A DNA stretch of 64,000 nt from an uncultured Alphaproteobacteria bacterium (GTDB taxonomy: Bacteria > Pseudomonadota > Alphaproteobacteria > SP197). The notes beneath the pieces were generated by a model. It had not been told where the DNA came from. It searched no databases and saw nothing but the letters and a program-made list of their open reading frames with translations. Positions 2,735 to 57,394 of the stretch are shown one piece after another. The position numbers and the translations under genes were made by a program. Positions within the stretch are counted from its first letter, which is position 1. The number at the start of each line of letters is the position of its first letter. The stretch lies in assembly GCA_958295695.1 (NCBI GenBank), contig OY282363.1:1113156-1177155 (forward strand), written 5' to 3'.

Positions 2735-4993
2735 ATGTCAGACCAGGTCAAGGTGAGCGACGCCGAAGCGCTCCGTTTCCATGCCGAGGGGCGACCCGGA
2801 AAGCTCGCCATCGCCCCGACCAAGCCGCTCGACACCGCCCGCGACCTCTCGCTCGCCTATTCGCCGGGCGTGGCGGCGCCCTGCCTGGAGATCCACCGGG
2901 ATCCCAGTCTCGCGTTCGACTACACGTCGCGCGGCAACATCGTGGCGATCGTGTCGAACGGAAGCGCGGTCCTGGGGCTCGGAAACCTGGGCGCCCTGGG
3001 CGCCAAGCCGGTCATGGAAGGCAAGGCCGTGCTGTTCAAGCGTTTCGCCGACATCGACGGCATCGACATCGAGATCGACAGCGAGGACGTCGACGAGATC
3101 GTCGACACCGTGCGCCTGATCAGCCCGACCTTCGGCGGCGTGAACCTCGAGGACATCAAGGCGCCGGAATGCTTCGTCATCGAGCAGCGCCTGCGCGAGC
3201 TGGTCGATATCCCGATCTTCCACGACGACCAGCACGGCACCGCGATCATCTGTCTGGCGGGCGTGATCAACGCGCTCGAGATCGCCGGCAAGGACCTCAA
3301 GGACTGCAAGGTCGTGGTCAACGGCGCGGGCGCGGCCGGAGTCGCCTGTCTGGAGCTCGTCAAGGCGCGCGGGCTGCCCCACGACAACGCCGTCCTGTGC
3401 GATTCCAAGGGCGTCGTCCACCGGGACCGCGAGGAGGGCATGAACCAGTGGAAGTCGGCCCACGCGATCGACACCGCGGCCCGCACGCTCGCCGACGCCA
3501 TGGACGGCGCCGACATTTTCCTCGGCGTTTCGGTCAAGGACGCGGTCGGCCCCGACATGGTCGCGTCGATGGCCGACAGGCCGATCGTCTTCGCGATGGC
3601 CAATCCCGACCCCGAGATCATGCCCGAGGACGCCATGGCCGCGCGCGCCGACGCCATCATCGCGACCGGCCGGTCGGACTATCCGAACCAGGTCAACAAC
3701 GTGCTCGGGTTTCCCTACATCTTCCGCGGCGCGCTCGATGTGCGCGCCACGACGATCAACGACGCCATGAAGATCGCCGCGGCCGAGGCGATCGCCGCCC
3801 TCGCGCGCGAGGACGTGCCGGACGAGGTGGCCTCGGCCTACACCAGCGGGTTCCTCCGGTTCGGCCCCGACTACATCATTCCCAAGCCGTTCGATCCCCG
3901 GCTCATCAGCCAGGTGCCGCCGGCCGTCGCCAGGGCGGCCATGGACTCGGGCGTGTCGCGCCGGCCGATCATCGACATGGAAGGCTACCGCGCGCAGCTC
4001 TCGGGGCGGCTGTCCCCGGTCGCGGGCCGCATGTACGAGGTCTTCGAGGCGGCGCGCGCCAAGCAGGCGCGGGTGGTGTTCGCCGAGGGGGAGGAGGAGA
4101 AGACCATACGCGCCGCGGCGCTGTGGCGCGACCAGGGCCTGGGCCAGGCCGTCCTGGTCGGGCGCGAGCGCCGCATCCACGAACGCATGGACTCCCTCGG
4201 CGTGAGCCCGGGCGGCATCGAGGTCGCCAACGCGGCCGACACCGGCGACCGCGACCGCTACGTCGACCTGGTCTACGCCAGGATGCAGCGCCGGGGCGCC
4301 CTGTTGCGCGACTGCCAGCGCTGGATCAGCTTGGACCGCAACGTCTTCGCCGCCGCGATGCTCGCCGCGGGCGACGCCGACGCCATGGTCACGGGCCTCA
4401 CGCGCTCCTATTCCGGGGCGCTGTCCCATGTCCGGCGCGTGCTCGACGCGCGCGAGGGCCACATCGTGTTCGGCATGTCGATCCTGGTGTCGCCCGGCCG
4501 CACGCTGTTCGTCGCCGATTCCACGGTCAATCCGGAGCCGTCCGCGGAAGAGCTGGCCGGCATCGCGTCGCAGGCCGCGGCGAAGACGCGCGCCCTGGGC
4601 GTGGAGCCCCGCGTGGCGCTGATGTCGTTCTCGAATTTCGGCAGCCGGGGCGCCGGGCAGACCGCCAACCTGCGCGGCGCCATCGATATCCTCCGGGCGC
4701 GCGGGGTCGATTTCGAGGTCGACGGGGAAATGGCTCCCGACACCGCGCTCGACGTCGAGGCGCTGGCCTACTATCCGTTCGCCCGGCTGGGCGGTCCGGC
4801 CAACGTGCTCATCATGCCGAACCTCCACACCGCCAACATCTCCTACAAGCTGGTCGAGGCCATGGAAGGGGCCCATGTGATCGGGCCGATCCTGATCGGC
4901 CTCGAGAAGCCGGTGCAGATCGTGCGCCTCGGCGCCACGGTCAACGACCTGTTGAACATGGCCGCGCTGGCCGCGGTCGACGCCGGGAACTGA
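2735..4993 (+). CDS. maeB: NADP-dependent malic enzyme (malic enzyme domain fused to C-terminal phosphotransacetylase-like domain)
   Basis: 752 aa. N-terminus MSDQVKVSDAEALRFHAEGRPGKLAIAPTKPL...AYSPGVAAPC is typical of MaeB. The ~330 aa C-terminal PTA-like domain is present. Confidence 0.9.
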   Translation: MSDQVKVSDAEALRFHAEGRPGKLAIAPTKPLDTARDLSLAYSPGVAAPCLEIHRDPSLAFDYTSRGNIVAIVSNGSAVLGLGNLGALGAKPVMEGKAVLFKRFADIDGIDIEIDSEDVDEIVDTVRLISPTFGGVNLEDIKAPECFVIEQRLRELVDIPIFHDDQHGTAIICLAGVINALEIAGKDLKDCKVVVNGAGAAGVACLELVKARGLPHDNAVLCDSKGVVHRDREEGMNQWKSAHAIDTAARTLADAMDGADIFLGVSVKDAVGPDMVASMADRPIVFAMANPDPEIMPEDAMAARADAIIATGRSDYPNQVNNVLGFPYIFRGALDVRATTINDAMKIAAAEAIAALAREDVPDEVASAYTSGFLRFGPDYIIPKPFDPRLISQVPPAVARAAMDSGVSRRPIIDMEGYRAQLSGRLSPVAGRMYEVFEAARAKQARVVFAEGEEEKTIRAAALWRDQGLGQAVLVGRERRIHERMDSLGVSPGGIEVANAADTGDRDRYVDLVYARMQRRGALLRDCQRWISLDRNVFAAAMLAAGDADAMVTGLTRSYSGALSHVRRVLDAREGHIVFGMSILVSPGRTLFVADSTVNPEPSAEELAGIASQAAAKTRALGVEPRVALMSFSNFGSRGAGQTANLRGAIDILRARGVDFEVDGEMAPDTALDVEALAYYPFARLGGPANVLIMPNLHTANISYKLVEAMEGAHVIGPILIGLEKPVQIVRLGATVNDLLNMAALAAVDAGN

Positions 4994-4996
4994 ACC

Positions 4997-6424
4997 GTGG
5001 CGTGGGCCGGGGGCGCGGGCGGCGGCGTGGCCGCGCGGCGCGCCGTCGGCCGCGTCGGCCTGTGTCTCGCGGCGCCGCTCGTCGGCGTCCAGGCCTTGGT
5101 CTTCGCCGTCATGGCGGCCGCCGGCTGGATCGGGCCGGGCGCGGCGCTCGGCGGGTTCGTCGCGCTGGCGGCGGCGACGGCGGCGGTCCTCCATCCCCTG
5201 GCGCGGAACCTCCAGGCGCTGGACCGCTGGCTGGCCGGGCGCGGGACGCGCGACGCGCCCGAGCCGCCGACGCTCGCGCCGGGGCCGGCCGGCCACGCGC
5301 TGCGGGCGCTCGCCGGCGGCGTCCACGATCTCGTCCGTTCGCGCGGCGAGGCCATCGACCGCCTGACCGCCGAGACCGGGCGCATGCTCGACACCCTGCC
5401 CGATCCCCTGCTGATGCTGGCGCGCGACCGGCGGGTGGTCCGGCTCAACCGGGCCGCGCGCGGCCTGTTCGACGAAGGCGCGATCGGCCGCGACCTCTCG
5501 CGCGTCCTGCGCGACCCGGCGCTCGACGGCGCGGTCGACCGGGTCCTGGCGGGCGACGCCGGATCGAGCGTCGAGGTCGTCCTGCGGACCGGCCGGGTCG
5601 AGCGCGCGTTCGCCGTCGACGTCGCGCCCCTTCCGGTGGGCGGAAACGGCGATCCGGTCGCGATGGCGACGTTCCACGACATCACGGCGATCCGCCGCAC
5701 CGAGCGGATGCGGGTCGATTTCGTGGCCAACGCGAGCCATGAGATCCGCTCGCCTCTGGCGACGCTGATCGGCTGCATCGAGACCCTGCGCGGGCCAGCG
5801 CGCGGCGACGACGAGGCGACGGAGCGTTTCCTCGGGATGATGGACGACCAGGGCCGCCGCATGGAACGGCTGGTGGGCGACCTGCTGTCGCTGTCGCGGA
5901 TCGAGCTCAAGGAGCACGCCCAGCCGACTGGCGAGGTCGACGTCGCCGGCGTCCTCGAACGGCTCCGGACATCGCTGCGGTTCGACGCCGACGAGAGGGA
6001 CATGACGGTCGAGCTCGGCGTCGAGCCCGGTCTCGTCCCCGCGCGCGGGGACGAGGACGAGGTCGAGCAGGCCGTCTACAACCTCCTCTCGAACGCCATC
6101 AAGTACGGTTGCCGCGGGACCGCGGTGCGGGTGTCCGCCGGGAGCGGCGACCGGCCTCCCGACCATCCGCGCGTCGTTCGCGGACCGCTCGTGTGGGTCT
6201 CCGTGACGGACCGCGGGGAGGGGATCGCCGCCCACCACATCCCCCGGCTGACCGAACGGTTCTACAGGGTCGACACCGCGCGCAGCCGCGAGCTGGGCGG
6301 TACGGGCCTGGGCCTCGCCATCGTGAAGCACGTGGTGAACCGCCACCGGGGCGAGCTCCACATCGACAGCCGGGCCGGCGAGGGATCGACCTTCACGATC
6401 TGGCTCCCGGCCGCGGAGCGTTGA
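4997..6424 (+). CDS. PAS-domain sensor histidine kinase (PhoR-like), orphan (no adjacent response regulator)
   Basis: HisKA H-box HEIRSPLATLIGCIETL and HATPase G-box GTGLGLAIVKHVV are present. The N-terminus has hydrophobic TM segments. The true start may be internal (around 5110). Confidence 0.75.
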   Translation: MAWAGGAGGGVAARRAVGRVGLCLAAPLVGVQALVFAVMAAAGWIGPGAALGGFVALAAATAAVLHPLARNLQALDRWLAGRGTRDAPEPPTLAPGPAGHALRALAGGVHDLVRSRGEAIDRLTAETGRMLDTLPDPLLMLARDRRVVRLNRAARGLFDEGAIGRDLSRVLRDPALDGAVDRVLAGDAGSSVEVVLRTGRVERAFAVDVAPLPVGGNGDPVAMATFHDITAIRRTERMRVDFVANASHEIRSPLATLIGCIETLRGPARGDDEATERFLGMMDDQGRRMERLVGDLLSLSRIELKEHAQPTGEVDVAGVLERLRTSLRFDADERDMTVELGVEPGLVPARGDEDEVEQAVYNLLSNAIKYGCRGTAVRVSAGSGDRPPDHPRVVRGPLVWVSVTDRGEGIAAHHIPRLTERFYRVDTARSRELGGTGLGLAIVKHVVNRHRGELHIDSRAGEGSTFTIWLPAAER

Positions 6425-6445
6425 CTCGCCGACGCCCGCCGCGCC

Positions 6446-8155
6446 TCAGCGGAGGAGGTAGAGCTGGCCCAGGGCGACCCTGTCGACCGGCTCGCACCAC
6501 GCGCGTTCGCCGTCGATGAAGACGTCGAAGGTCTGCGGATCGACCCGGATGTCCGGCAGGGCGGCGTTGTGCAGCATGTCGCCCTTGGAGAGGTCGCGGG
6601 TGGGGCCGATGGCCGTCAGCGGCTTGGCCAGCCCGAGGCGGCCGGCGAGGTCCCGCTCGATCGCGCTGGGGTGCGCGAAGGTGGTGGAGATCGCCGGCGG
6701 CGCCGCGCCGACGGCGCCCCAGGCGCCGCGCATCCGCACGGGTTCGGCCGCGCCGACGCTGGCCGCCGCGTCGCCGATGGCGGCCCACGCCGTGAAGCCG
6801 CCCTTGATGACGGTCTGGGGCTTGAGCCCGAAGAAGGCCGGCTTCCAGAGCACGATGTCGGCCATCTTGCCGGGCTCCAGGCTGCCGACCTCGCCGTCGA
6901 TGCCGAACACGCGCGCCGCGTTGATCGTGATCTTGGCGAGATAGCGCAGGATGCGGGCGTTGTCGGCGCCGTCGAACGGCTCCTCGGGGAGGGGCCCGCG
7001 CTGGTCCTTCATCTTGCTCGCGAGCTGCCAGCAGCGCGCCACGACCTCGTTGACGCGCCCCATGCCCATGCTGTCGGAGCCGAACATCGAGATCGCGCCG
7101 ATGTCGTGCAGGATGTCCTCCGCGGCGATGGTCTGGGCGCGGATGCGGCTCTCGGCGAAGGCCACGTCCTCGGGGATGTCCGGCATCAGGTGGTGCACGG
7201 TCATGGTCATGTCGAGGTGTTCGTCGAAGGTGTTGACCGTGAACGGGTTGGTCGGGTTGGTCGAGGACGGCAGGCAGTTCTCCTCGCCGTTGCAGCGGAT
7301 GATGTCCGGCGCGTGGCCGCCGCCGGCGCCCTCGGTGTGGTACATGTGGATCGTGCGCCCGGCGATCGCCGCCATGGTCGATTCGTAGAAGCCGGACTCG
7401 TTCAGCGTGTCGGTGTGGATCTGGACCTGGAAGTCGAGCTCGTCGGCGACGGAAAGCGCGGTGTCGATCGCCGCGGGCGCCGCGCCGTAGTCCTCGTGGA
7501 TCTTCACCCCCAGGATGCCCGAGGCCGCCTGCTCGCGGATGCTCCCGGCGTCGTGGGTGCTGCCGCGGCCCAGGAAGCCGAAGTTCATCGGCATCGCCTC
7601 GACCGCCCGCAGCATGTTGGCCGTGGTCCAGCCGCCGCCCGAATCGATGGCGAAGAGCGGCCCGTGGCCGCCGCCCACCAGCGTCGTGAGGCCGGTCGAC
7701 AGGGCGTGCCGCACCAGGTCCGGCGTCTTGAAGTGGACGTGGACGTCGATGCCGCCGGGGGTGGCGATCAGCGTCTCGCCGTGGGCGACCACGGTCGAGG
7801 GCCCGCACACGAGGGCGGGGTCGACGCCGTCCATGACGTCGGGGTTGCCGGCCTTGCCGATCCCGACGACGCGCCCCTCGCGCACGCCGATGTCGCCCTT
7901 CACGACGCCGATGACGGGGTCGATCACGAGCGCGTTGTGGACGACGAGGTCGAGCGCGCCGTCGGCGTGGCGCTGGGCCGCCCGCATGCCCATCCCGTCC
8001 CGGTAGCTCTTGCCGCCGCCCGTGGCGAGCTCCTCGCCGGGGACCAGCCGGTCCTCGGCGACCTCGGCCAGGAGACTGGTGTCGCCGAGCCGCACCCGGT
8101 CGCCCTCGGTCGGGCCGAACGCCGCCGCGTAGGCGGCGCGGGTCATCTCCGCCAT
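6446..8155 (-). CDS. ureC: urease alpha subunit
   Basis: 569 aa. Conserved active-site ligands are present: [19 protein letters not shown]..., [24 protein letters not shown] (carbamyl-Lys), [47 protein letters not shown]. Confidence 0.95.
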
Positions 8156-8156
8156 G

Positions 8157-8858
8157 TCACGCTCCCCGGAAGCCGCGCGCGCGGGCGCGTTCGAGGGCCG
8201 CGGCCCTGACCCCGGGGTCGTGGATCGACCCCTCGGTCAGCCCGTGGAACCCGCTCACCGCGCCCTCGCCCCCGATCTCGACCAGCGCGACCTCGCGGCT
8301 CTCGCCGGGCTCGAAGCGGCGCGCGGCGCCCGCGGGTACGTCGAGGCGCATGCCGAAGGCGGCGGCGCGGTCGAACTCCAGCGCCGCGTTGGCTTCGAAG
8401 AAGTGGTGGTGGCTCCCGACCTGCACGGGCCGGTCGCCCGTGTTGAGGACCGTGAGCGTCGCCCCGCGCCGGCCCGCGTTCAGCGCCACCGCGCCGTCCG
8501 CCGCGACGACCTCGCCCGGGTGGATGTCGGCGCCGTCGACGGGCGTCTCGCCGCCGGGCCGGACGGGATCGTGCACCGTGATCAGCTTGGCGCCGTCGGG
8601 GAACAGGCCCTCGACCTGGACGACGGGCATCAGGCGGCGCACGCCCGGCATCACGTCGTCGGCGCTCAGGATCGTCGCGCCCCAGGCCGCGAGGTCCGCG
8701 ACCGTCCTGCCCTCCCGCGCGCCCTCCAGCAGGGCGTCGACGATCAGGGCCTGCGCCTCGGGATGGTTGAGCTTCAGCCCCTTCTCCTTCCTGCGCCGCG
8801 CCATTTCGGCGGCGGCGAAGATGACGATCCGCTCCATCTCGGTCGGTGTCAGCATCAT
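8157..8858 (-). CDS. ureAB: urease gamma-beta fused subunit (UreA-UreB fusion)
   Basis: 233 aa. The N-terminal ~100 aa match UreA ([35 protein letters not shown]...). The C-terminal ~130 aa match UreB ([40 protein letters not shown]...[10 protein letters not shown]). There is a 2-nt gap to ureC. Confidence 0.9.
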
Positions 8859-8909
8859 GGCCGCGGTCCTCCCGTCCGGGGGCGAGGATAGCGGGCGGGG
8901 GAGGGAAAA

Positions 8910-9968
8910 TCAGTCGGCCATGGCGTCTTTCCCACTCGCGCCGGCGGCGCGCGGGGAGGCCCGAGACGCCGCGGTCTTGTCGACGCCCTTGAGGTCGTGG
9001 GCGAAGACCCGGTTGAAACGTTCGAGCTGGTACTCGCCCGCGACCGTCGGTTCGTAGCGCGGCGTCTCGTCCGCCGGCAGGCCCAGGTCGCGCGGGTCGA
9101 TCACGGTGTGGAAGGCCGGGTCGTAGAACACGGCCATCGAGAACCGCTCCCGGCCCGAGCTGTTGACGACGCGGTGCCGGGTCGAGGCGAAACGGTCGTT
9201 CGACCAGCGCGCCAAGAGGTCGCCGACATTGACCAGCAGGGCGCCCTCGACCGGTGGCGCGGCGAGCCATTCGCCCTCCCGGCTCATCACCTGGAGGCCG
9301 CCGAGGCTGTCCTGGCAGACCAGGGTGAGGCAGCCGAAGTCGGTATGCGCGGCCACGCCGAACTGGTCCTTGCCGGCCTCGGCGGGCTGCGGCGGGTAGT
9401 AGATCAACTGCCCCCGCGCCATGGGCTTCTCGAAGTGCGGCGCCAGCGCGTCGGGTTCGAGGCCGAGCCCGACGCAGACGGCGCGCAGGAGCCGGGACGC
9501 GGTGGCGCACCCTTCCCGGTAGAACCCGTCGTAGATGGCCCGGCGCATCCCGGGCTGGCGCGCCGGCCACCGGTTCGGCCCCCGGAACGGCGTGCCCGCG
9601 ACGACCTCGGGGTCGTCGGGATCCAGCTCCAGCCCCCAACTGAAGAGCTCCTTGAGATCGGTCCTGGCGGCGCCGGTCATGCGCGCCTCGCCGAGCCCCA
9701 TCCAGCCGCGGTTGATGTCGTTCACCGCGATCTCGGCCTTCCTCCGTTCGTCCTGGAGGAAGAAGGCGCGGGAGGCCGCGAAGGCCCGCTCGACGGTCCC
9801 GGGCGCGACGCCGTGGTTCCCGACGTAGTAGAAGCCCAGGCCCCGGCAGGCGGCGACGATGGCGTCGGCCGTCCGTTCCAGCGCGCCGGCCTCGCCGGCC
9901 AGCAGCGGGCCGAGGTCGATCGTCGGGATCTCCTCGGCGGTGACCGGTCTGGCGTGGGCGTAGGGCAT
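8910..9968 (-). CDS. 2-oxoglutarate/Fe(II)-dependent oxygenase, IPNS/DIOX_N family
   Basis: ~352 aa starting MPYAHARPVTAEEIPTIDLG, with the GFYYVGNHGV motif and the HTDFGCLTLV...HRV His/Asp/His core. The ORF track extends it artefactually to 10493. Its stop lies 52 bp from the ureAB start on the same strand. Confidence 0.8.
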   Translation of the reverse strand: MPYAHARPVTAEEIPTIDLGPLLAGEAGALERTADAIVAACRGLGFYYVGNHGVAPGTVERAFAASRAFFLQDERRKAEIAVNDINRGWMGLGEARMTGAARTDLKELFSWGLELDPDDPEVVAGTPFRGPNRWPARQPGMRRAIYDGFYREGCATASRLLRAVCVGLGLEPDALAPHFEKPMARGQLIYYPPQPAEAGKDQFGVAAHTDFGCLTLVCQDSLGGLQVMSREGEWLAAPPVEGALLVNVGDLLARWSNDRFASTRHRVVNSSGRERFSMAVFYDPAFHTVIDPRDLGLPADETPRYEPTVAGEYQLERFNRVFAHDLKGVDKTAASRASPRAAGASGKDAMAD

Positions 9969-10262
9969 CGCGGTCTCGCTCGACGCCGCGTCATCATGGC
10001 CCGGCCGCGCCGGGCGTGTGAAGAGGCTTGTTCGACCGTGAAGCGCGGGACGAACCGCGCCGGCGCCGGTCTCGTCCGCGTCGCGGCGTTCCACGAGCCC
10101 GATGGCGGGACCCGCGCGCGTGAACTCGAGCGAGCCTTCGGCGGCCGCCCAGGGCGAGGGGATTTCGGGGCGGGTGTCGGGAGAACGCTCTTCCCCCCAT
10201 CCCGAACAGGCGCGCGGCGCCGTATCGAGGGAGCGCCCTCCTTCGCCCCGCCGCGAAGTTCC

Positions 10263-10291
10263 GGGGGGTTGACGGGGGGGTAGGGGTAGGA
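10263..10291 (+). other. G-quadruplex-forming motif (G6-N5-G7-N2-G4-N2-G2)
   Basis: ggggggttgacgggggggtaggggtagg, in the intergenic region between the 2OG oxygenase gene and the low-GC island. Confidence 0.3.
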
Positions 10292-10384
10292 GACTGCCGA
10301 AGTCCGGTTGGAAGGATCGCGGAAGCATGACGAGGTTGTTTCCCCGCAACGCCCCCCGCGCGTCGGGCTCGGCGGCCCATGGGC

Positions 10385-18363: not shown

Positions 18364-19503
18364 ATGGCGCATACGTTCGAGCGGGTTCCCCTGATGGCGC
18401 CCGGCCCCGGAACCGAGCGGTTCCTCGCGGCGCACCGCTTCGGAACGCCGGGCGCGCGGCCCAAGCTCTACTTCCACGCCGCGCTCCACGCCGACGAGCT
18501 GCCGGGCGCGCTGGTCCTCAACCGGATGCTGGGCTGGCTGAAGGAGGCCGACGCCGAAGGCGGTCTCTCCGGCGAGGTCGTCGTCGCGCCCTGCGCCAAC
18601 CCGGTCGGACTTTCCAACCGCGTCATGGGCTACCATCTCGGACGCTACGACCTGGACGGCGACGGCAACTTCAACCGCTGGTATCCGGACCTGGGCCGGA
18701 CGGTGGGCGACAGGGTCGGCGACCGGCTGGGCGACGACGAGGCGGAGAACGGCCGCCTGATCCGGGAGGCCTACCGGGAGGCCATCGAGGCGTGGGAGGC
18801 CCACGGCGAGGCCGACACCCTGCGCAAGACGCTGATGGCGCTGTCGGCCGATTGCGACTTCGTGTTCGACCTGCACTGCCACGGCGAGGCGGTCCAGTAC
18901 ATCTACATGCCGGAGAACCACTGGGAGCGCTACGGCGATCTGGCCGCCGAGCTCGGCTGCCGGACGGCGCTGCTGTTTCCGACCGACGCCGGGACCACCT
19001 TCGACACCGCGCCGACGGTCGTCTGGCATCGGCTGCGCGAATGCTTCCCCGACCGGCCGATCGCGGAGCCGCCGTTCACGACCACCCTGGAGCTGCGCGG
19101 CCAGAACGACGTGGGCGACGACATCGCGCTGCGCGACGCGCGCGGCCTGTGGCGCTTCCTGCAGCGCCACGGGATCGTCGCGGGCGATCCCGGCGACCCG
19201 CCGGAGCTGTTGTGCGAGCCGACGCCGGTCTCGGGTTCCGACAATCTCGTGGCGACCCGCGCCGGCGTCCTGTCCTACCGCGTCGATGTGGGCGGCCGGG
19301 TCGAGGCCGGCGACGTGGTGGCCGACATCGTCGATCCGGCGGAGGCGGACTTCGACGCGGCGCGCACGCCGGTGAGGAGCCGGGCGACGGGCGTTCTCTA
19401 CGGCCGGTCGATGAGCCGTCTGGTGCGGCCGGGCCAGTCGTTCGCCGTGGTGTCCGGGCGCGAGGCGCTTCCGGCCGGCGACCCGCCCGCGATCGACTAC
19501 TGA
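18364..19503 (+). CDS. succinylglutamate desuccinylase/aspartoacylase (AstE/AspA) family deacylase, paralog 1
   Basis: 379 aa with the AstE_AspA N-terminal Zn-site pattern FHAALHADELPG and DLHCHGEA. This is the family that contains DoeB (N-acetyl-diaminobutyrate deacetylase). Confidence 0.75.
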   Translation: MAHTFERVPLMAPGPGTERFLAAHRFGTPGARPKLYFHAALHADELPGALVLNRMLGWLKEADAEGGLSGEVVVAPCANPVGLSNRVMGYHLGRYDLDGDGNFNRWYPDLGRTVGDRVGDRLGDDEAENGRLIREAYREAIEAWEAHGEADTLRKTLMALSADCDFVFDLHCHGEAVQYIYMPENHWERYGDLAAELGCRTALLFPTDAGTTFDTAPTVVWHRLRECFPDRPIAEPPFTTTLELRGQNDVGDDIALRDARGLWRFLQRHGIVAGDPGDPPELLCEPTPVSGSDNLVATRAGVLSYRVDVGGRVEAGDVVADIVDPAEADFDAARTPVRSRATGVLYGRSMSRLVRPGQSFAVVSGREALPAGDPPAIDY

Positions 19504-19510
19504 GGCCGCC

Positions 19511-20614
19511 GTGACGCACCGCAAGGAGCATATCGACCTGCCCGTGGCCAGCCTCGGCACCCGGCGCCGCCTCGTCGTGCACCGCTTCGGGACGCCGGGC
19601 GCGCGGCCCAAGGCCTACCTCCACGCCGCGCTGCACGCCCAGGAGCTTCCCGGCGTCGTGGTCCTGGACCGCCTCGTCGCGCGCCTCCGGGAGGCCGACG
19701 CGGCCGGATCGGTCGCGGGCGAGGTCGTGGTCGTCCCCTTCGCCAACCCGATCGGGCTGTCCCAGCAGATCATGATGGAGGCCCAGGGCCGCCACGACCT
19801 CGATACGGGCCGCAACTACAACCGCGGGTTCCCGGATCTTATCGACGAGGTCGCCGACGCGGTCGACGGCCGCCTCGCCGGCGACGGCGCCCGCAACGTC
19901 GCGTTGATCCGCGAGGCCATGGCGTCGGCGCTCGCCGCCCGCCGCGACGCGCGCGAGGCGGACGTCCTGAAGCTCACGCTCCTGCGCCTGTCCTGCGACG
20001 CGGACCTCGTCCTCGACCTCCATTCGGCCTGGGAGGCGCTGCTCCACCTCTTCGTCACCGACCTCAACTGGCCCGGGGCGTCCGACCTCGCTCGCCAGAT
20101 GGGCGCCGAGGCGGTGCTGGTCGACCGCGGCAACCGTATGATGACGTTCAAGTCGGCCCATGCGCTCCTGTGGAAAGAGCTCGCGGCGCGCTTCCCCGAC
20201 CGTCCGGTCCCGCCGGGCAGCCTCGCCGCCGTGGTCGAGCTACGCGGACAGCGCGACGTCGACGACCGCTTCACCAAGCCGGACGCGGACAACCTGTTCC
20301 GCTGGCTGCAACGCCGCGGCGCGGTCGCCGGCGACCCCGGACCCCTGCCGCCGCCAGCGTGCGAGCCGCGCTCGGCGGACGGGCTGCGCCGCCTCTTCGC
20401 GGCGGAAGGCGGCATCGTCATCTACCGCGGCGCGCTCGGCGACCGCGTCCGGGAAGGCCGGGCCTTCGCCCACATCCTCGATCCCGACACGGGCCGCCGC
20501 ACCGCCGTCTCCGCGCCCGCCGACGGCCTGCTCTACGCCCGCCGTAGCCACCGGTTCGCCCGGAAGGGCCAGTATTTCGCCGCCATCGCGGGCGACACGT
20601 TCGTCGAGGATTAG
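19511..20614 (+). CDS. succinylglutamate desuccinylase/aspartoacylase (AstE/AspA) family deacylase, paralog 2
   Basis: 367 aa, colinear with paralog 1 (LHAALHAQELPG, DLHSAWEA). Starts 8 bp after paralog 1, so a tandem pair. Confidence 0.75.
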   Translation: MTHRKEHIDLPVASLGTRRRLVVHRFGTPGARPKAYLHAALHAQELPGVVVLDRLVARLREADAAGSVAGEVVVVPFANPIGLSQQIMMEAQGRHDLDTGRNYNRGFPDLIDEVADAVDGRLAGDGARNVALIREAMASALAARRDAREADVLKLTLLRLSCDADLVLDLHSAWEALLHLFVTDLNWPGASDLARQMGAEAVLVDRGNRMMTFKSAHALLWKELAARFPDRPVPPGSLAAVVELRGQRDVDDRFTKPDADNLFRWLQRRGAVAGDPGPLPPPACEPRSADGLRRLFAAEGGIVIYRGALGDRVREGRAFAHILDPDTGRRTAVSAPADGLLYARRSHRFARKGQYFAAIAGDTFVED

Positions 20615-20746
20615 GACGGCGGCGAGGGAACCGTCCGCGGCCCGCCGGCATCGCCGATGGGGCCGCCCGGACGACTCCGATCCGGCTCTTCCCTTTCAGT
20701 TATCCGGTTTCTCTCTTTCAGTTATACGATCTCGTCCTTTCAATGA

Positions 20747-20794
20747 ATTGTCCTATCGTTTTGAACCGGGAGCGGCGACGGTCCTTGAGTCTGT
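20747..20794. repeat. ~48-bp dispersed intergenic repeat, copy B (core TTGAACCGGGAGCGGCG), also at 2607-2654
   Basis: A 17-nt perfect core plus matching flanks (about 38/48 identity) between two intergenic regions. Confidence 0.5.
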
Positions 20795-20964
20795 CGAGGG
20801 AGACCGGTCCCGATCCAAGCCAATAGGATGACGCTCTAAACGACAGTTTTTTCAAACGGTTAACGGTCCGGAACAGCGGCGGGACAGCTGGTCGAGTCCA
20901 GCGGGAAGGCCGGACATGCCCGCCGTCCGGGCGCGCGGCTTCCGCCTCGCCCGCGCGCCCTGGA

Positions 20965-22203
20965 TCAATCGCGCGCGATCTCACGGAGCGCGGCGATCAG
21001 GCGGTCGACCTCGGCCAGCGTGTTGTAGTGCGCGAGGGAGCAGCGGACGACGCCGTCCGCGGGATCGACGCCGACCGCGTCGAGGATGCGGGGCGCGTAG
21101 AAATGCCCCGCGCCGGCGGCGACGCCCCTGGCCTCCAGGAGCGCAGGGACATCCTGGCTCCTCACGCCCGCGACCGTGAAGCTGAAGGTCGGCGCGCGGC
21201 GGTCGCGGTCGGTCGCGGTCCGGCCGATAACGCGGATCTTCGGATGATCGGCCGCGAAGCCGAGGAAGCGGGCCGAGAGGCTTTCCTCGTGACGGGCGAT
21301 GATCCCGAACACCTGCCGCATGCGGCCGTGGAGGTCGTCGGCGGGCTCGTCCAGATGGTGCGCCGCGAGCGCCTCGAAATACTCGCCGACGCCGACGCAG
21401 CCGGCCGTGAGCTCGTGGTTCGGCGCGCCGGGGTTCATCTTGAGCGGCAGGTCGTCCTCGCCGTGGAAAAAGAAATACTGGCCTTTCGCCTTCAGCAGGT
21501 GTTCGCGCTTGCCGTACATCGCGCCCAGATGCGGCCCGTAGGTCTTGTAGAGGCTGAAGAGGTAGAAATCGACGTCGAGCGCCTTCACGTCGACGCTCGC
21601 GTGCGGCGCGAAGGCCACGCCGTCGACGCAGACCCGGCCCCCCGCGTCGTGGACCGTGGCGGCGATCTCGGCCACCGGGTTCGGGCCGCCCGTGATGTTG
21701 GAACAGTGCGAGAAGGCGACCAGGCGCGTCCTCTCCGAGAGCATCGCGCGCAGCGTCTCGGGCTCCAGCTCGGCGGTCTCCGGATCGACCCGCCATTCGC
21801 GCACCGCGACGCCGGACTCCGCGAGGCGGCGCCAATGGCCGTTGTTGGCTTCGTGATCGAGGTTGGTGACGATCACCTCGCCGCCCACGAGCTCGTCGCG
21901 CAGGGCCGCGGCAAGCGCGATCGCGTTGCGCGTCGTCGAAGGCCCGACGACCACCTCGTCGGGGTCCGCGTTGATCATGGCCGCCACCGTCTCGTGGCCC
22001 TTCCTCATGCGCGCCTCGGCCTCCCGCGCGATCGCCGCGTTGGCGCCGGGCTGCACATGGCATTCGGTCATGTAGTCCCGGACCCGGTCGATCACCGTGC
22101 GGGGCGCCAGGCTGCCGCCGGCGTTCTCCATGAAGGCCCAGCCGTCGTCGAGCGCCGGAAAGAAGGCGCGGACGAAATCGAGGTCGAGCGGCTTGTCCGG
22201 CAC
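20965..22203 (-). CDS. class V-fold PLP-dependent aminotransferase (cysteine desulfurase/isopenicillin-N-epimerase-like)
   Basis: 412 aa with a PLP-lysine context SLYKTYGPHLGAMYG and HCSNITG. Stop of the upstream decarboxylase gene is 4 bp before its start. Confidence 0.75.
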   Translation of the reverse strand: MPDKPLDLDFVRAFFPALDDGWAFMENAGGSLAPRTVIDRVRDYMTECHVQPGANAAIAREAEARMRKGHETVAAMINADPDEVVVGPSTTRNAIALAAALRDELVGGEVIVTNLDHEANNGHWRRLAESGVAVREWRVDPETAELEPETLRAMLSERTRLVAFSHCSNITGGPNPVAEIAATVHDAGGRVCVDGVAFAPHASVDVKALDVDFYLFSLYKTYGPHLGAMYGKREHLLKAKGQYFFFHGEDDLPLKMNPGAPNHELTAGCVGVGEYFEALAAHHLDEPADDLHGRMRQVFGIIARHEESLSARFLGFAADHPKIRVIGRTATDRDRRAPTFSFTVAGVRSQDVPALLEARGVAAGAGHFYAPRILDAVGVDPADGVVRCSLAHYNTLAEVDRLIAALREIARD

Positions 22204-22207
22204 GGCG

Positions 22208-23638
22208 CTACTCCCGGACGCGGGCGGCGTCGCCGAACCGGACGATCCTCTCGATCGTGCCGGCGAGGTCGTCGTCGCCGATGCGGGGATTGATGGTGCA
22301 GAAGCGCAGGCAGGTGCGCCCCTTGAGTTCCGTGGAGGTCACGAAGGCGAAACCGTCGTCGAGCAGGGCCGCGACGATCCCGCGCTGCAAACCGCTCGTT
22401 TCCGCCTCGTCGAGGCCGTCGCGCAGAAGACGGAAGGTCACGACGGCCAGCGTGGGCTCCGTGACGATCTCGAAGCGGCCGCTCGCGCGCATCATCGCCG
22501 CGGCGCGTTCCGCGGTGGCGATGCCGCGCCGGACGGCCCGCCGGAAGGCCGCCGCGCCGAACACCTTGAGCGAGAGCCACAGCTTGAAGGCGCGGAGCCC
22601 GCGCGAGAGCTGGAGGCCGCGCTCGGAGAAGTTCACCTCGCCGTCGCCTTCGGCGACATCCTGGAGATATTCGGGGCTGGCCGCGAAGGCATGGTTCAGC
22701 AGGCCCGGCTCGCGCACGAAGCAGATGCCGGCCTCGTAGGGCTGGAACAGCCACTTGTGGGGGTCGATCACCACGGAATCGCCGCGCTCCATGCCGGCAA
22801 GCAGCGCGCGGCCGTCCTCGACGAGGGCGGCGGCGGCGCCATAGGCGCCGTCGATATGGACCCACAGTCCGAACTCGTCCGCCAGATCGGCGATTCCGTG
22901 GAGGTCGTCGACCGCGCCGGTGTTGGTTGTTCCGGCGTTCGCGACGATGCAGAACGGCCTGAGGCCCGCCTCGCGGTCGCGCCCGACCGCCGCGCGCAGC
23001 CGGTCGAGGTCGATACGGTAGTCGTCGCCCGTGGCGACCGTGCGAAGCTGGTTCGCGCGGAAGCCCAGGATGCGCAGGGCGCGCGCCACGCAGCTGTGGG
23101 TCTGGTCCGCGCAGTAGGCCACGGCGCCGGTCATGTCGTCGCCCAGCTTGTGGTCCCGGGCGACGGCGAGCCCGATCATGTTGGCGACCGAGCCGCCGCT
23201 GGTGAAGACGCCGTCGGCGTGGCCCTCGAGGCCCGCGAGCTCCTTCACCCACTCGAGCGTCGTGAGCTCGCATTCGACCGGCCCCGGCGTCTCGCGCCAC
23301 ATGCTGGCCGCGGCGTTGTAGCCCGACGCGAGCGCGTCGGCGACCGCCGCGACATAGTTGGACGGTCCCGGCACGAAGGCCAGGAAGCGGGGATGCGCGA
23401 TCCGCCCCATCGCGCCGAAGACATGCCGGTCGGCGAAGGCGAGCGCCTCCCTCCAGTCCCCGGCGTCCTCGGGCAGCGGCTCGCGCAGGGCGCCGCGCAA
23501 GGTCGCGAGATCGGCGTCGACGGCCGCGGGCGTCCCGGTCATGGCCGACCAGTGCTCGACCAGCCTGTCGACCGCATGGTAGCCCAGCGCCCGCATTTCC
23601 TCGGGCGAGAGCTCGAGCCGCCCCGGGTCCCTGGTCAT
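22208..23638 (-). CDS. group II pyridoxal-dependent decarboxylase (DABA/glutamate/aromatic-amino-acid/CSAD family)
   Basis: 476 aa. PLP-Lys motif SVVIDPHKWLFQPYEAG and GGSVANMIGLAVAR are typical of Pyridoxal_deC. Confidence 0.8.
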   Translation of the reverse strand: MTRDPGRLELSPEEMRALGYHAVDRLVEHWSAMTGTPAAVDADLATLRGALREPLPEDAGDWREALAFADRHVFGAMGRIAHPRFLAFVPGPSNYVAAVADALASGYNAAASMWRETPGPVECELTTLEWVKELAGLEGHADGVFTSGGSVANMIGLAVARDHKLGDDMTGAVAYCADQTHSCVARALRILGFRANQLRTVATGDDYRIDLDRLRAAVGRDREAGLRPFCIVANAGTTNTGAVDDLHGIADLADEFGLWVHIDGAYGAAAALVEDGRALLAGMERGDSVVIDPHKWLFQPYEAGICFVREPGLLNHAFAASPEYLQDVAEGDGEVNFSERGLQLSRGLRAFKLWLSLKVFGAAAFRRAVRRGIATAERAAAMMRASGRFEIVTEPTLAVVTFRLLRDGLDEAETSGLQRGIVAALLDDGFAFVTSTELKGRTCLRFCTINPRIGDDDLAGTIERIVRFGDAARVRE

Positions 23639-23678
23639 GGTCCCGCGTAGCGCGGCGGCCGCGCCGGGGCAAGGGGCT

Positions 23679-24161
23679 TCAACGGGCCGGCGACGCCTCC
23701 GCCCCTCCCAGCCAACGGGCGAGCGCCTTGTCCGGATCGGCGAGGCGCTCGACCGAATCGTACCAGTGGGTTTGCCAGCCGCGCTCCGGGAGCCCGGCGA
23801 ACAGCATCAGGTTCAGGGGATAGACCTCGCTGTCGGTGCAGCGCCTGAAGTCGTCGCGAAAGAGGAAGACCGCTTTCCCCCAGGCGATCGCCATGCCGAG
23901 CTCCACCATGACTCCCTCGTCCGGCGGGCAGCCGTTGACGACCGCGAACAGGCCGTCCGCCTCGCGCACATCGCCGAGGTCGGCCTGCCCGATCCGGTAG
24001 GCCCAGCCGGAGCTCGCCCGGTCGATCTGGTTGTTGCGGGCGAACGGCTCCCATACCTCGGCGCCGATCGCTTCCAGGGCCGAGACGAGTTCCGCCAGCG
24101 GCCCGGCGCGCTGCTGCGTCGAAAACCCGTAGGGGTTCGCCAGATAAAGGGTCCTGGTCAT
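23679..24161 (-). CDS. nucleoside 2-deoxyribosyltransferase-fold protein (NDT/DNPH1/MilB-like putative N-glycosidase)
   Basis: 160 aa MTRTLYLANPYGFS...GLFAVVNGCPPDEGVMVELGMAIAWGKAVFLF, a Rossmann-like NDT-family pattern. It sits 40 bp upstream of the decarboxylase on the same strand. The track start is overextended. Confidence 0.6.
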   Translation of the reverse strand: MTRTLYLANPYGFSTQQRAGPLAELVSALEAIGAEVWEPFARNNQIDRASSGWAYRIGQADLGDVREADGLFAVVNGCPPDEGVMVELGMAIAWGKAVFLFRDDFRRCTDSEVYPLNLMLFAGLPERGWQTHWYDSVERLADPDKALARWLGGAEASPAR

Positions 24162-24330
24162 GTTCCCGCGCCTCGATTCCCGTCGGCACCCCCGACGGAC
24201 ATTCATACACGACCTTCGGGAGTTTATGAATCTGGATGGCGCGGCTCCGAACATTCGCGATCCGGCCCGGCGCGTCTGGCGACGCGGGCGGCCTCGTGCC
24301 ATGGTCCGCCCGGATCGGAGGGAGAACGCG

Positions 24331-24876
24331 ATGACCGCCGCCGCCGAAGGCCGCCTGACGCCGCTCGCGCCCGAAGAATGGGACGCTTCGCTGGCCGGTG
24401 TCCTGGCGGGCCTCGGGGGTCCGCTCAACATCCACGGCGTCATCGCGCGCAATCCGGCGCCGATGCGAAGCTACATCGGCCTGCGCGGCCACGTGGTGGC
24501 CAGTGGCTCGCTGAGCCCGCGCCAGCGGGAGCTCGTCATCCTCCGGGTCGCGCGCCTGACGGGCTGCGCCTGCGAGTGGGGCCACCATGTGGCGCGGGGC
24601 CGCGCCGCCGGGTTCGACGACCGCGAGATCGCGCGCATCCGGGACGGATCCGGGGGCTGGCCGGCCGACGAGGCGCTCCTGATCCAGGCGGTCGACGACA
24701 TGCTGTCCGGCTGGCGGATCTCGCCCGGCACATGGTCGGCCCTGTGCGCCGCGTTCGACGACAACCGGCTTCTCGACGCCTTCTTCACCGTTGGCGTCTA
24801 CGTCACCCTGTCGGCCATCCTGAACACGGCCGGGGCGCCGCGCGAGGACGGCTTCGCGGCGGAGGGCCTGGCGTGA
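24331..24876 (+). CDS. carboxymuconolactone decarboxylase (CMD/AhpD-like) family protein
   Basis: ~181 aa containing a CxxxH-like core (LTGCACEWGHHVARG) typical of the CMD family. Confidence 0.65.
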   Translation: MTAAAEGRLTPLAPEEWDASLAGVLAGLGGPLNIHGVIARNPAPMRSYIGLRGHVVASGSLSPRQRELVILRVARLTGCACEWGHHVARGRAAGFDDREIARIRDGSGGWPADEALLIQAVDDMLSGWRISPGTWSALCAAFDDNRLLDAFFTVGVYVTLSAILNTAGAPREDGFAAEGLA

Positions 24877-26048: not shown

Positions 26049-26294
26049 GGCTCCTCCTCCCCGTCGGTGCGGCGGCCATTATGCCCGGAGCGGGCCGCGG
26101 GCGACACGATCCGGGCCTAACCGGCTTTGCCGGAATCGCTCCGGGACCGCGATTGCGGCCCCGCCGGCTTGCCGGCGCCCGCTCAAGGCGCGGCCCACGG
26201 GGCCGCTTGCCGCGGGCGACGAGCAAGCCACGGCGTTTCCGTCTTCGACGGAAACGCTGTAGGTTCCGGCGGCTCGGGCGCGACGGGGAGAGAC

Positions 26295-27302
26295 ATGAGC
26301 GACGACGACATCGACCGGGGCGTGCCCGAGGCGCGCAAGCTGGCTTGGGGCGCGGTCTACAAGCCGCGCTATTCCGGCGTGGCGACCTTCATGCGCCAGG
26401 AGTTGAGGGAAGATCCGGACGCCTGGGACGGCGTCGAGGTCGGCCTGATCGGCGCGCCCTTCGACGGCGGCGTCACCAACCGCCCGGGCGCCCGCCACGG
26501 ACCGCGCGCCCTGCGCGACCAGTCGACGCTGATGGGGCGCGTCAACCACCAGACCGGAGTCAGGCCCTACGACTGGGCGGTCTCCGCCGACCTCGGCGAC
26601 GTCCCGATCGAAGGCGTCTACGAGCTCGACCGCGCGATCGACGACATCGAGGCGTTCTACGCCAAGGTCGTGGCGGCGGGCGTCGTACCGCTCACGGCCG
26701 GCGGCGACCATTCGATCACGCTGCCCATCATGCGCGCGATCTCGAAGCACCGGGGCGGGCCGGTCGGCATGGTTCATTTCGACGCCCACTGCGACACGGG
26801 CCCGGAGCTCTTCGGCCACAAGCACCACCACGGCGGGCCCTTCCGCTGCGCCGTGGAGGACGGCGCGCTCGATCCCCGGCGCACGATCCAGATCGGCATC
26901 CGCGGGCCCGCCGAGGCGCTGTGGGACTTCAGCTACGACTCGGGCATGACCGTGATCCACATCGAGGAGCTCTACGCCATGGGGCTCGACGCGGCGGTCG
27001 CCAGGGCGCGCGATGTCGTCGGCGCCGGGCCAACCTATGTCAGCTTCGATGTCGACGGCATGGATCCGGTCTATGCGCCCGGCACCGGCACGCCCGAGGT
27101 GGGCGGCTTCACCGCCTTCGAGGCCCAGAAGATGCTGCGCGGCCTGATGGGGCTCGACATCGTCGGCGGCGACGTGGTCGAGGTCTCCCCGCCCTTCGAC
27201 ACGGCCAACATCACCGCGCTCAACGGCGTCCAGATGATGTGGGAGATGCTCTGCCTGATGGCCGACAGGATCGGCCGGGAGAAAGGACGGATCGAGACCT
27301 GA
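26295..27302 (+). CDS. agmatinase/arginase-family ureohydrolase (agmatinase, guanidinobutyrase or guanidinopropionase-like)
   Basis: 335 aa with Mn-binding motifs GGDHSIT, DAHCDT, SFDVDGMDP. The product is predicted to be urea plus an amine. Confidence 0.8.
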   Translation: MSDDDIDRGVPEARKLAWGAVYKPRYSGVATFMRQELREDPDAWDGVEVGLIGAPFDGGVTNRPGARHGPRALRDQSTLMGRVNHQTGVRPYDWAVSADLGDVPIEGVYELDRAIDDIEAFYAKVVAAGVVPLTAGGDHSITLPIMRAISKHRGGPVGMVHFDAHCDTGPELFGHKHHHGGPFRCAVEDGALDPRRTIQIGIRGPAEALWDFSYDSGMTVIHIEELYAMGLDAAVARARDVVGAGPTYVSFDVDGMDPVYAPGTGTPEVGGFTAFEAQKMLRGLMGLDIVGGDVVEVSPPFDTANITALNGVQMMWEMLCLMADRIGREKGRIET

Positions 27303-37964: not shown

Positions 37965-37997
37965 GCAGCTTGCCCGTCCCGTTCGTCCCGGGGGCCG

Positions 37998-38999: not shown

Positions 39000-39066
39000 G
39001 CCTCTCCCCGGAACGCGATCGCGCGTATACTAACGGTCACCCTGCATTACGGTATCACGCTCCGCC

Positions 39067-55746: not shown

Positions 55747-56925
55747 TCAGCGCGTCACGAGGTCGAGCGGGGCGCGGTGGAGCGGCTCGCATCCCCGCCG
55801 CGTGACCGACACGCTGCGGCCCAGCGCCATGCCGTGGCCGTTCTCGCTGTTCGCCAGGATCATGTGCAGGAAGAAGACCATGTTGGGTTCGATCGCGACC
55901 GGGTTGCCATGGAAGAACATGGGCCAGTCCATCCAGTTGGGCGGGAAGGTCGCGCCCATGGAATAGCCGCAGGCGTTGAGGCGGTGATCGCGGAAGCCGT
56001 GCTCGTCCATGACGCGCGCATGGGCGTCGAAGACGTCGCCCATGGTCGATCCGGGCCTGACCGTCTCCTCGCAGGCCGAGAGCGCCTCGCGGCACGCCTC
56101 GTACATCGCCTTGTGGTCCTCGTCGGGGTCGCCGAGGAGGATCGTGAGCATCTGGGCGGTATGGTAGTGCCGGTAGGACGCGGCGTACTCCAGCATCAGT
56201 TGGTCCCTGGCCTCGAGATGGCGGCGGCCCGTGTGGTAGCGCACCAGCAGCGCCGAAGGTCCGGACCCGACGATCCAGTGGCCGGCCGGATAGTCACCGT
56301 CGCCGGAGAAGACCGCGCCCTGCATGGCCGCCAGGATATCGCCGGTAAAGACGCCCGCCCTGGCCGTGTCGCGCGCGGCCCGATGCGCCTCGTCGCCCAG
56401 TTCCGCCGCGTTCTTCATGAAGGCGAGCTCGGCCGGGCTTTTGACGAGCCGCAACCGGGTCACGAGGTCGGAGGCGTTCCGGATCTCGCAGAAGCCGTCC
56501 AGCCTCGGTTTCAACCGCTCCCAATGGGCCGCCGTCAGGCCGTAGGCGTCCGTCTCCACGCCGACGCGCTTGCCAGCGAGCCCCATCCCGGCTGCCATGT
56601 CCTTCAACTCGCCGTAGGGGTCGGCCGTGTCGCTGTCGACCCAGACGCGCACATCCTCGACGATCGAGGTGTAGGCCGCTTGGCGCAGATCCGGAGAACG
56701 GGTGAGCAGGGCGAGCCCGCCGTCTCCGGTCAGCACGAGGCACTGGAACATGACGAAACCCGTCGTGTCGTAGCCCGTGAGGTAGTACATGCTCTCTTGG
56801 CGGAACATGAGGAGGCCGTCGAACCCGTTGTCGGCCATGGCCCGCCGCGTGCGCGCGAGGCGCTCGTCGTATTCGCCGCGGGCAAAGTGCAGAACCATGA
56901 TCGCCTCCCGGGTCTCCGGCCGCAT
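55747..56925 (-). CDS. M24 family metallopeptidase (Xaa-Pro aminopeptidase/creatinase-like)
   Basis: 392 aa with a creatinase_N plus pita-bread domain. Confidence 0.75.
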   Translation of the reverse strand: MRPETREAIMVLHFARGEYDERLARTRRAMADNGFDGLLMFRQESMYYLTGYDTTGFVMFQCLVLTGDGGLALLTRSPDLRQAAYTSIVEDVRVWVDSDTADPYGELKDMAAGMGLAGKRVGVETDAYGLTAAHWERLKPRLDGFCEIRNASDLVTRLRLVKSPAELAFMKNAAELGDEAHRAARDTARAGVFTGDILAAMQGAVFSGDGDYPAGHWIVGSGPSALLVRYHTGRRHLEARDQLMLEYAASYRHYHTAQMLTILLGDPDEDHKAMYEACREALSACEETVRPGSTMGDVFDAHARVMDEHGFRDHRLNACGYSMGATFPPNWMDWPMFFHGNPVAIEPNMVFFLHMILANSENGHGMALGRSVSVTRRGCEPLHRAPLDLVTR

Positions 56926-56965
56926 CCTGCCAACACATCGCGCAAGCGGCCACCGGGAATTCAGG

Positions 56966-57394
56966 TCATGGCGAACCGCATCCAGATAAACGCGGCATAG
57001 CCCGGCAGGAAGAGGGCGCCGAGGCGCGGCCGATGCGGCGGCGCGCGACCGGCGCCACGAAACAGGCGGTCGGCGCGAGCATGGCGGCCATGGCGAAGCG
57101 CACGTCCGCTCCGCCGGCGTCGACCGGCGTCACGACGGCCACGACGCCCAGGAGGTTGAACAGGTTGCCGCCGAGGACGTTGCCAAGCGCGAGGTCGGCA
57201 TGGCCGAGCAGGGCCGTTTCGATGCTGACGAGAAGCTCCGGCGCGGACGTTCCGAACCCCACGAGGATCACGCCGACGGCGATTTCCGAGCCCCCGAGGC
57301 GACGGGCCAGGGCGGAGCCGCCGCGGACCAGGGCCTCTCCGCCGAGGAAGAGCGGGACGAATCCGGAAACGGTCGGGACGAGAGGCATGAACAT
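56966..57394 (-). pseudogene. truncated Na+/Ca2+ exchanger (CaCA, Na_Ca_ex) N-terminal fragment
   Basis: MFMPLVPTVSGFVPLFLGGEALVRGGSALARRLGGSEIAVGVILVGFGTSAPELLVSIETALLGHADLALGNVLGGNLFNLLGVVAV is an alpha-1 repeat only, after which hydrophobicity is lost. Full-length family members are about 320 aa. Confidence 0.4.

Follow-up and report, generated by a model that had tools for sequence, protein, structure and literature searches.

A 64-kb stretch of DNA from an uncultured alphaproteobacterium (GenBank contig OY282363.1, positions 1,113,156 to 1,177,155; hereafter the window) carries a fused ureAB gene and a ureC gene, and we conclude with moderate confidence that this pair encodes a genuine urease matured in trans by accessory proteins from other parts of the genome. 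Activation of urease, the textbook example of a nickel enzyme, is generally considered to depend on a dedicated set of GTP-dependent chaperones. UreAB-UreC would belong, as a paralogue, to a divergent family of fused two-subunit ureases in proteobacteria, splitting urea into ammonia and carbamate at a dinuclear metal center bridged by a carbamylated lysine. The metal is most likely nickel, and it would be inserted in trans by UreD, UreF, UreG, and possibly UreE, encoded elsewhere in the 3.4-Mb genome.

As assessed by profile searches, the urease structural genes are indeed a fused ureAB followed by ureC, as the original prediction had it. UreC matches PF00449 (148.8 bits), PF01979 (223 bits), and TIGR01792 (752.6 bits, with a curated cut-off of 680), and UreAB matches NF009671, "bifunctional urease subunit gamma/beta" (PRK13192), with 330.7 bits (cut-off 243) over residues 1-232. 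The two genes are 1 nucleotide (nt) apart, a Shine-Dalgarno sequence (GGGAGGA) sits 5' of ureAB, and the predicted convergent histidine kinase, a PAS kinase, lies 21 nt from the 3' end of ureC. We found nothing tying this kinase to urease. A 704,697-bp contig in the ENA metagenome assembly ERZ19489113 matches the whole stretch at 99% identity and has an identical UreAB. The ratio of nonsynonymous to synonymous substitution rates (dN/dS) of UreC and UreAB, computed against six relatives, is 0.10-0.24, which points to purifying selection on both genes.

Table 1. Features of the window discussed in the text, with lengths in amino acids (aa) where given
Feature	Position	Strand	Basis or remark
ureC, urease alpha subunit, 569 aa, clade B of the divergent family	6446..8155	-	Urease_alpha + Amidohydro_1, TIGR01792
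ureAB, fused gamma-beta urease subunit, 233 aa	8157..8858	-	Urease_gamma 1-99, Urease_beta 114-210
Spacer between oxygenase gene and ureAB, 51 nt	8859..8909	-	without terminator-like site
PAS/HisKA/HATPase histidine kinase, convergent with ureC	4997..6424	+	PhoR-like, below cut-off
IPNS/EFE-family Fe(II)/2-oxoglutarate oxygenase, 352 aa	8910..9968	-	DIOX_N + 2OG-FeII_Oxy
Sigma-70-like promoter candidate 5' of oxygenase gene	9993..10022	-	consensus match only
Open reading frame of 301 aa in low-GC insertion (10001..11800)	10327-11232	+	~41% GC; 0.39 GC at third codon positions
Remnant of OpuAC-type substrate-binding protein gene	11457..11705	+	tblastn, 43% identity, only residues 226-308 of the L002 OpuAC-like protein
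ABC transporter ATPase, remainder of the OpuA-type transporter of the ancestral island	11842..12873	+	ABC_tran; same position as in L082
Agmatinase-like ureohydrolase, 18 kb from urease	26127..27302	+	Arginase family 296.8 bits; TIGR01230 174.0 bits (cut-off 174.3)
Creatinase/prolidase-type M24 hydrolase, 47 kb from urease	55747..57129	-	Creatinase_N + Peptidase_M24

The window UreC aligns with that of Klebsiella aerogenes at ~55% identity, and no solved structure is nearer to it than those of canonical ureases. It shares with the canonical nickel enzymes UreABC of K. aerogenes and Sporosarcina pasteurii (PDB 1ejw and 4ubp) the domain architecture, the ligands, and the catalytic residues. In K. 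aerogenes numbering, the metal ligands H134, H136, K217, H246, H272, and D360 are all kept, K217 being the predicted carbamylated ligand, and so are the catalytic and substrate-binding residues H219, D221, H320, and R336 (motifs KIHED, VHH, and ESRIR). The claim that the active-site residues of UreC are intact thus stands for the catalytic core. It fails for the pocket wall, which, unlike that of canonical ureases, has a 4-residue deletion in the Ala167 loop, GTGPAxGTxATTCTPG(PW), and the sequence GSDSMGMGR (Q362M and A363G) instead of SDSQAMGR; moreover, HEDW has become HEDY (W222Y) and C319 is replaced by Val. In canonical ureases, the backbone carbonyls of A167 and A363 contact urea, as established by urease structures, and the canonical pocket wall formed by the Ala167 loop and Ala363 is absent from the window UreC. 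That the enzyme is functional, as had been presumed, is supported at the level of sequence.

Some of these differences characterize a family. With UreAB as the query and one genome per species, we collected 80 loci, clustered their open reading frames (ORFs), aligned the UreC proteins, and built a neighbor-joining tree, in which the UreC of loci L001-L053 and L056 form a single clade. All of them display the 4-residue loop deletion, an IHMYHTEG motif, and A363G. Clade A, which is basal, has the gene order ureE-ureF-ureAB-ureC-ureG-ureD, accompanied by an ANTAR regulator and by genes for a binding protein and a urea-type ABC transporter, and has plasmid-borne members in cultured Methylobacterium, Aminobacter, Shinella, and Ancylobacter. 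Clade B, to which the window belongs with L001-L011, L022, and L029, has no accessory genes near ureAB-ureC and carries W222Y, Q362M, and T159H. Its sister, clade B' (L012, L013, L016, and L027), carries H321R and has ureD/G adjacent where the flank is long enough, together with ureF in L012. Clades C, D, and E likewise have none nearby, and their pocket and flap are more strongly changed. As a side observation, a Burkholderiales metagenome-assembled genome (MAG) contains a full clade-A cluster, ureE-F-AB-C-G-D (L026, 10001-20110), with a second urease showing the canonical loop motif ~5 kb downstream.

Examples of clade A, on plasmids pMRAD01 of Methylobacterium radiotolerans and pAA01 of Aminobacter aminovorans, are annotated as "urease" and resemble the window urease in the fused ureAB, the loop deletion, IHMYHTEG, and A363G, with UreC 63-66% identical. 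Unlike the window urease, they have the complete accessory set and keep W222 and C319. Transporter genes flank the cluster: urtBCDE and, after ureD, a HupE/UreJ nickel permease in the Aminobacter record, which also has the ANTAR regulator, and urtA after ureD in the M. radiotolerans record, where urate-catabolism genes lie beside the cluster. We found no biochemical study of clade A in the searched literature. Because clade A combines the loop deletion with a full accessory set, the deletion is compatible with standard nickel-urease maturation and, likewise, the changed pocket wall does not exclude urease function. The fused ureAB, in turn, also occurs in loci with ureF/G/D (Helicobacter, Streptomyces, and clade A), so that the gamma-beta fusion, originally taken as a sign of an atypical or acquired locus, is uninformative by itself. 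The locus is nevertheless atypical, and more so than first proposed, since it belongs to a divergent family in which the lack of accessory genes is a trait of whole clades. These proteins already carry the label "urease" in databases, and we found no paper on this urease branch in the searched full-text literature.

UreD/E/F/G genes were not found anywhere in the window by tblastn using all the UreD/E/F/G proteins from 80 related loci (best E = 0.002) or by Pfam scans of ~40 window ORFs, nor within ±10 kb of the locus in the precomputed Pfam calls for the 99%-identical ENA contig. The same Pfam scans of window ORFs revealed no nickel transporter or hyp gene. The earlier statement that no ureDEFG genes lie within ~10 kb is therefore correct and extends to all 64 kb, and the ureD, ureF, and ureG genes that accompany the structural genes in nickel-urease operons are missing here. 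As assessed by tblastn, none of the 39 clade B-E loci, 23 of which have ~10 kb on both sides, contains any accessory gene in the available flanks, whereas at least one is present in 39 of the 42 loci consisting of clade A, clade B', L031, and canonical ureases. The three exceptions (L016, L027, and L070) end ~1.2 kb or less downstream of ureC, and L070 also has less than 3 kb upstream. A gene encoding an SBP_bac_5 protein flanks clade B/B' ureases in seven loci (L002-L004, L083, L012, L013, and L027), directly 3' of ureC in clade B1 and ~3-4 kb or less 5' of ureAB in clade B'. Its best NCBIfam matches are NikA-type (141-145 bits, far under the cut-off of 600), and the protein may be a component of a nickel or peptide importer. 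This gene is absent from the window.

This distribution could mean that the orphan clades do not use accessory proteins at all and self-assemble their metal center, possibly with iron or another metal in place of nickel. We know of no sequence marker of metal choice or of nickel or accessory independence in ureases. Only two exceptions to the chaperone need came up in the searched literature: UreA2B2 of Helicobacter mustelae (PMC2846917) and UreABC of Bacillus subtilis (PMC8600894), the latter organism being described, with reference to Kim et al. 2005, as having only ureABC, no accessory genes, and a very low intrinsic activity. Both serve as precedents, the second at low efficiency. Like the window urease, the H. 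mustelae iron urease (PDB 3qga) has a fused gamma-beta subunit plus an alpha subunit and no adjacent accessory genes, but the two are not close kin, 3qga scoring 561.8 bits, under the canonical nickel enzymes (625.1 for K. aerogenes). B. subtilis resembles the window in having structural genes only, but its three subunits are separate, and the absence established here has a 64-kb scope. The missing nickel transporter and hyp genes would fit accessory independence, as would the contrast between the clade B-E loci and nearly all other sampled urease loci, in which accessory genes are adjacent. Since ureDFG is retained in both the sister clade B' and the basal clade A, and the gene absence covers the loci and the 64 kb and not the whole genome, we consider this explanation unlikely.

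A different explanation is suggested by the pocket. Of 177 alignment positions that are invariant in 28 canonical ureases, 19 are changed in clade A, 26 in clade B, 25 in B', 29 in D, 40 in C, and 42 in E, with no catalytic residue among them. Several pocket and flap positions without any variation among canonical ureases are fixed within clades and differ between them: W222 is replaced by Y, I/L, or F, Q362 by M or E, H321 by R, N, F, or variable residues, S361 by A, and T159 by H. The enzymes could thus be neofunctionalized urease-fold amidohydrolases, in which the machinery was kept and the pocket changed to accept a substituted urea or another small amide supplied by catabolic enzymes of the neighborhood. 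The high counts in clades C and E would agree with this, as would the presence of two different paralogues in each of two MAGs with clade-B and clade-C copies, PBNE01 (L002 and L048) and CALIUG01 (L004 and L052), and the fact that two unrelated families of Fe/2-oxoglutarate (2OG) oxygenases recur nearby, the IPNS type in clade B1 and the TauD type in clade C. However, the largest change, i.e. the loop deletion with A363G, is also found in clade A, with its linkage to urea transporter genes, and the widely differing neighborhoods, with clade B2 amid housekeeping genes, better fit a self-contained unit for urea hydrolysis. To our knowledge, no natural urease homologue has another physiological substrate. 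We regard neofunctionalization as improbable. 

Accessory independence and a changed substrate are both kept alive by the clade-wide lack of accessory genes, the clade-specific pocket changes, and the two paralogues per genome. A combined reading, in which orphan clades B-E no longer need UreD/F/G (being self-activating or non-nickel) and/or have diversified to non-urea amidohydrolases, would explain all three observations, and we put it forward as a tentative, minority possibility. For maturation in trans of a genuine urease, which we prefer, the analysis shows the fold, the ligands, and selective constraint, as well as the link of clades A and B' to standard nickel maturation; activity, metal, and the route of maturation are inferred. 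Several points weigh against it. No linkage was seen in the 64 kb here or in the available flanks of the 39 clade B-E loci, whereas maturation in trans, if normal, would be expected to leave some surviving linkage; the two different orphan paralogues per MAG argue against simple redundancy; the A167 and A363 positions fall in remodeled sequence; and no biochemically tested member of the family was found in the searched literature.

The two outcomes would have different consequences. A branch that is consistently stand-alone, broad, and environmentally common could represent an extensive natural collection of ureases that are accessory-independent or use an alternative metal or, alternatively, the first functional diversification of the urease fold in nature. 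If these enzymes are matured in trans, metagenomic ureC counts taken as "ureolysis potential" would lump canonical ureases with these paralogues, and the lack of nearby ureDEFG would be a clade trait rather than a sign of gene transfer or decay.

The gene upstream of ureAB encodes, as predicted, an IPNS-type 2OG oxygenase. It matches DIOX_N and 2OG-FeII_Oxy (85 and 88.5 bits), and its translation displays the HxD...H triad and RxS motif (AAHTDFG, TRHRV, and RERFS), features shared with its best solved relatives, the IPNS/EFE-family oxygenases 9ovh and 6jyv (E ~1e-56 to both). Orthologues with 72-86% identity lie in the same syntenic island of relatives, dN/dS against five relatives is 0.13-0.35, and an identical protein is present on a 3,415,685-bp contig. 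In relatives, the island consists of EamA, Rieske oxygenase, M19 peptidase, SDR, OpuA-type permease, ATPase, OpuAC, and oxygenase genes, followed by prolyl aminopeptidase, an RPE65 fragment, AsnC/Lrp (opposite strand), a 64-aa ORF, ureAB, ureC, SBP_bac_5, and SDR. In L082/L083, the aminopeptidase, the RPE65 fragment, the AsnC/Lrp regulator, and the 64-aa ORF all lie between the oxygenase and ureAB, and the distance between these two genes is 2.7-3.9 kb in L002, L004, and L082-L083. MttB-like genes come after the same island in L002, L003, L085, and L086. An oxygenase orthologue is found within 10 kb of ureAB only in L001, L002, L004, L082, and L083; it is absent near ureAB in L003 and L005-L081, the other loci of the UreAB scan, and L085 and L086 have the oxygenase but no working urease.

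Adjacency and strand in the window are as originally described, with a spacing of 51 rather than 52 nt. The C terminus of the oxygenase is 12 aa longer than in its orthologues, and homology to the ureAB-proximal region of L082/L083 begins only in the last few codons of this extended ORF. Within the spacer, ACTGATTTTC and CCGCTATCCTC are common to that region and mark the deletion edge. Because the upstream homology starts at the 3' end of the oxygenase and the ORF is 12 aa longer, the 51-nt adjacency is a deletion scar. The deletion, which also took the AsnC/Lrp regulator, brought the urease pair behind an unrelated 2OG oxygenase in this strain. The promoter candidate 5' of the oxygenase is the sole such site in 6200-10600, where 0.1 are expected by chance, and no terminator-like site was found in the spacer. 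Together with the 51-nt adjacency, these features suggest that a single transcript starting at the oxygenase promoter probably covers all three genes. The proposal that the oxygenase may be co-transcribed is thus plausible in this strain, but the coupling is not conserved among relatives, and co-transcription of oxygenase, ureAB, and ureC would be a strain-level accident.

Three further candidates were rejected. There was no match to a sigma-54 promoter 5' of the oxygenase, and the window has fewer such matches than expected by chance. An upstream riboswitch or RNA element was not supported either: searches against Rfam at gathering thresholds gave no hit anywhere in the window, and those covering 8800-11900 gave none even at E <= 1. 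Finally, a conserved functional link in which an EFE-like oxygenase oxidatively releases urea or guanidine for subsequent hydrolysis was discarded because the adjacency is limited to the nearest relatives, genes intervene, and the junction is a deletion scar.

The urease genes have a native composition. The GC content of the window is ~72%, and GC at third codon positions (GC3) is 0.97 in ureC and 0.96 in ureAB, the highest of the window ORFs; the value of 0.86 for the oxygenase was computed from stop to stop and thus takes in non-coding sequence upstream of the gene. The syntenic island of relatives contains these genes as well, at 74-86% protein identity. A horizontal origin was therefore rejected, and the suggestion that the locus had been acquired is not supported by this composition and synteny or by the dN/dS values. 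The low-GC island reported upstream does exist (10001-12000, at 51.5-55.9% GC), but it is a separate insertion, located next to the operon and adjoining the remnant of the OpuAC gene. Its 301-aa ORF has no significant match in Pfam, NCBIfam, or PADLOC, with only a sub-threshold TPR_27 in Pfam, and PADLOC gave no match on the strain-specific genes of L001. Relatives have an intact OpuAC gene adjoining the oxygenase where the window has the remnant, and the 661-aa permease of the L082 island is missing from the window. The spot beside the low-GC island varies between strains. There, the two 99%-identical assemblies are distinguished by an indel: L001 carries ~1.55 kb (4281-5832, with a RelE-family gene and small ORFs) that is missing at window positions 13029-13209.

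Such erosion of the island (OpuAC remnant, lost permease, low-GC insertion, and deleted AsnC regulator) raises the question of whether the urease is a decaying relic, i.e. an unused paralogue in a degrading catabolic island. Decay has happened in a relative: in L085 (11869-12343), the orthologous clade-B urease is cut to a 52-aa Urease_gamma fragment in an otherwise conserved island, and this remnant shares chromosome OZ242015.1 with an intact clade-C orphan urease (L053). In the window, however, both ORFs are intact with all catalytic residues, GC3 and dN/dS are those of maintained genes, and UreAB is identical in the second, 99%-identical assembly. A relic is consequently very improbable.

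As for the role of a genuine urease matured in trans, it is likely to be the recovery of nitrogen from urea made in the cell by the breakdown of guanidino, ureido, or osmolyte compounds. Genes for such catabolism abound in the island around the pair. The neighborhoods of the other orphan clades vary widely. Together with the agmatinase-like and creatinase/prolidase-like genes of the window, this agrees with a self-contained unit for urea-nitrogen recovery that often has possible urea-releasing enzymes close by. Clade B2 ureases have housekeeping neighbors (a MurA-like gene, class II ribonucleotide reductase, and pantothenate synthesis), and those of clade D have a glutamine-synthetase-like gene and an aminotransferase. 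The neighbors of clade C include TauD-type dioxygenases, a creatinase/prolidase-type M24 hydrolase, an M20 peptidase, acyl-CoA enzymes, an MFS transporter, a sarcosine/dimethylglycine-dehydrogenase-like gene, and MttB. Upstream of the clade-C ureases in L048, L050, and L052, there is a recurring set of two TauD-family Fe/2OG dioxygenases, a polysaccharide-deacetylase-like gene, an SDR, and an M20 peptidase, while the M24 creatinase/prolidase-like gene is found upstream of the ureases in L048, L050, and L053. In L053, it is directly 5' of the urease, and its product, which has the Pfam domains of the M24 hydrolase of the window, gives its best NCBIfam matches to the ectoine hydrolase DoeA, below the cut-off. 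The TauD-type genes of clade C represent a second association of 2OG oxygenases with orphan ureases, unrelated to that of the IPNS-type with clade B1.

In the window itself, the agmatinase-like ureohydrolase is a possible internal source of urea. It belongs to a run of genes for small-molecule nitrogen catabolism (14877-27302) that also includes an FlK-thioesterase/DSBA fusion, a double ectoine-synthase-like cupin protein, a GbcA-like Rieske oxygenase, two AstE/AspA-family deacylases, a class-V aminotransferase, a diaminobutyrate-decarboxylase-like enzyme, a CMD-family protein, and a DUF427 protein.

Among the other genes of the window, those for MutS and a MaeB-type malic enzyme mark the organism as a proteobacterium and not an actinomycete. 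At 30544-32028 (+ strand) lies a gene for a 494-aa protein with at least eight ankyrin repeats. Ankyrin-repeat proteins are eukaryote-like and often reported in host-associated bacteria, and L030 stems from a MAG that bears the name Candidatus Poriferihabitaceae, a hint of an association with sponges. Two ORFs without a Pfam match, 32273-34360 (- strand, 695 aa) and 35387-37384 (+ strand, 665 aa), adjoin a MoxR AAA ATPase/DUF58 pair (37083-39029); the second has an odd pattern of GC by codon position and may not be a real gene.

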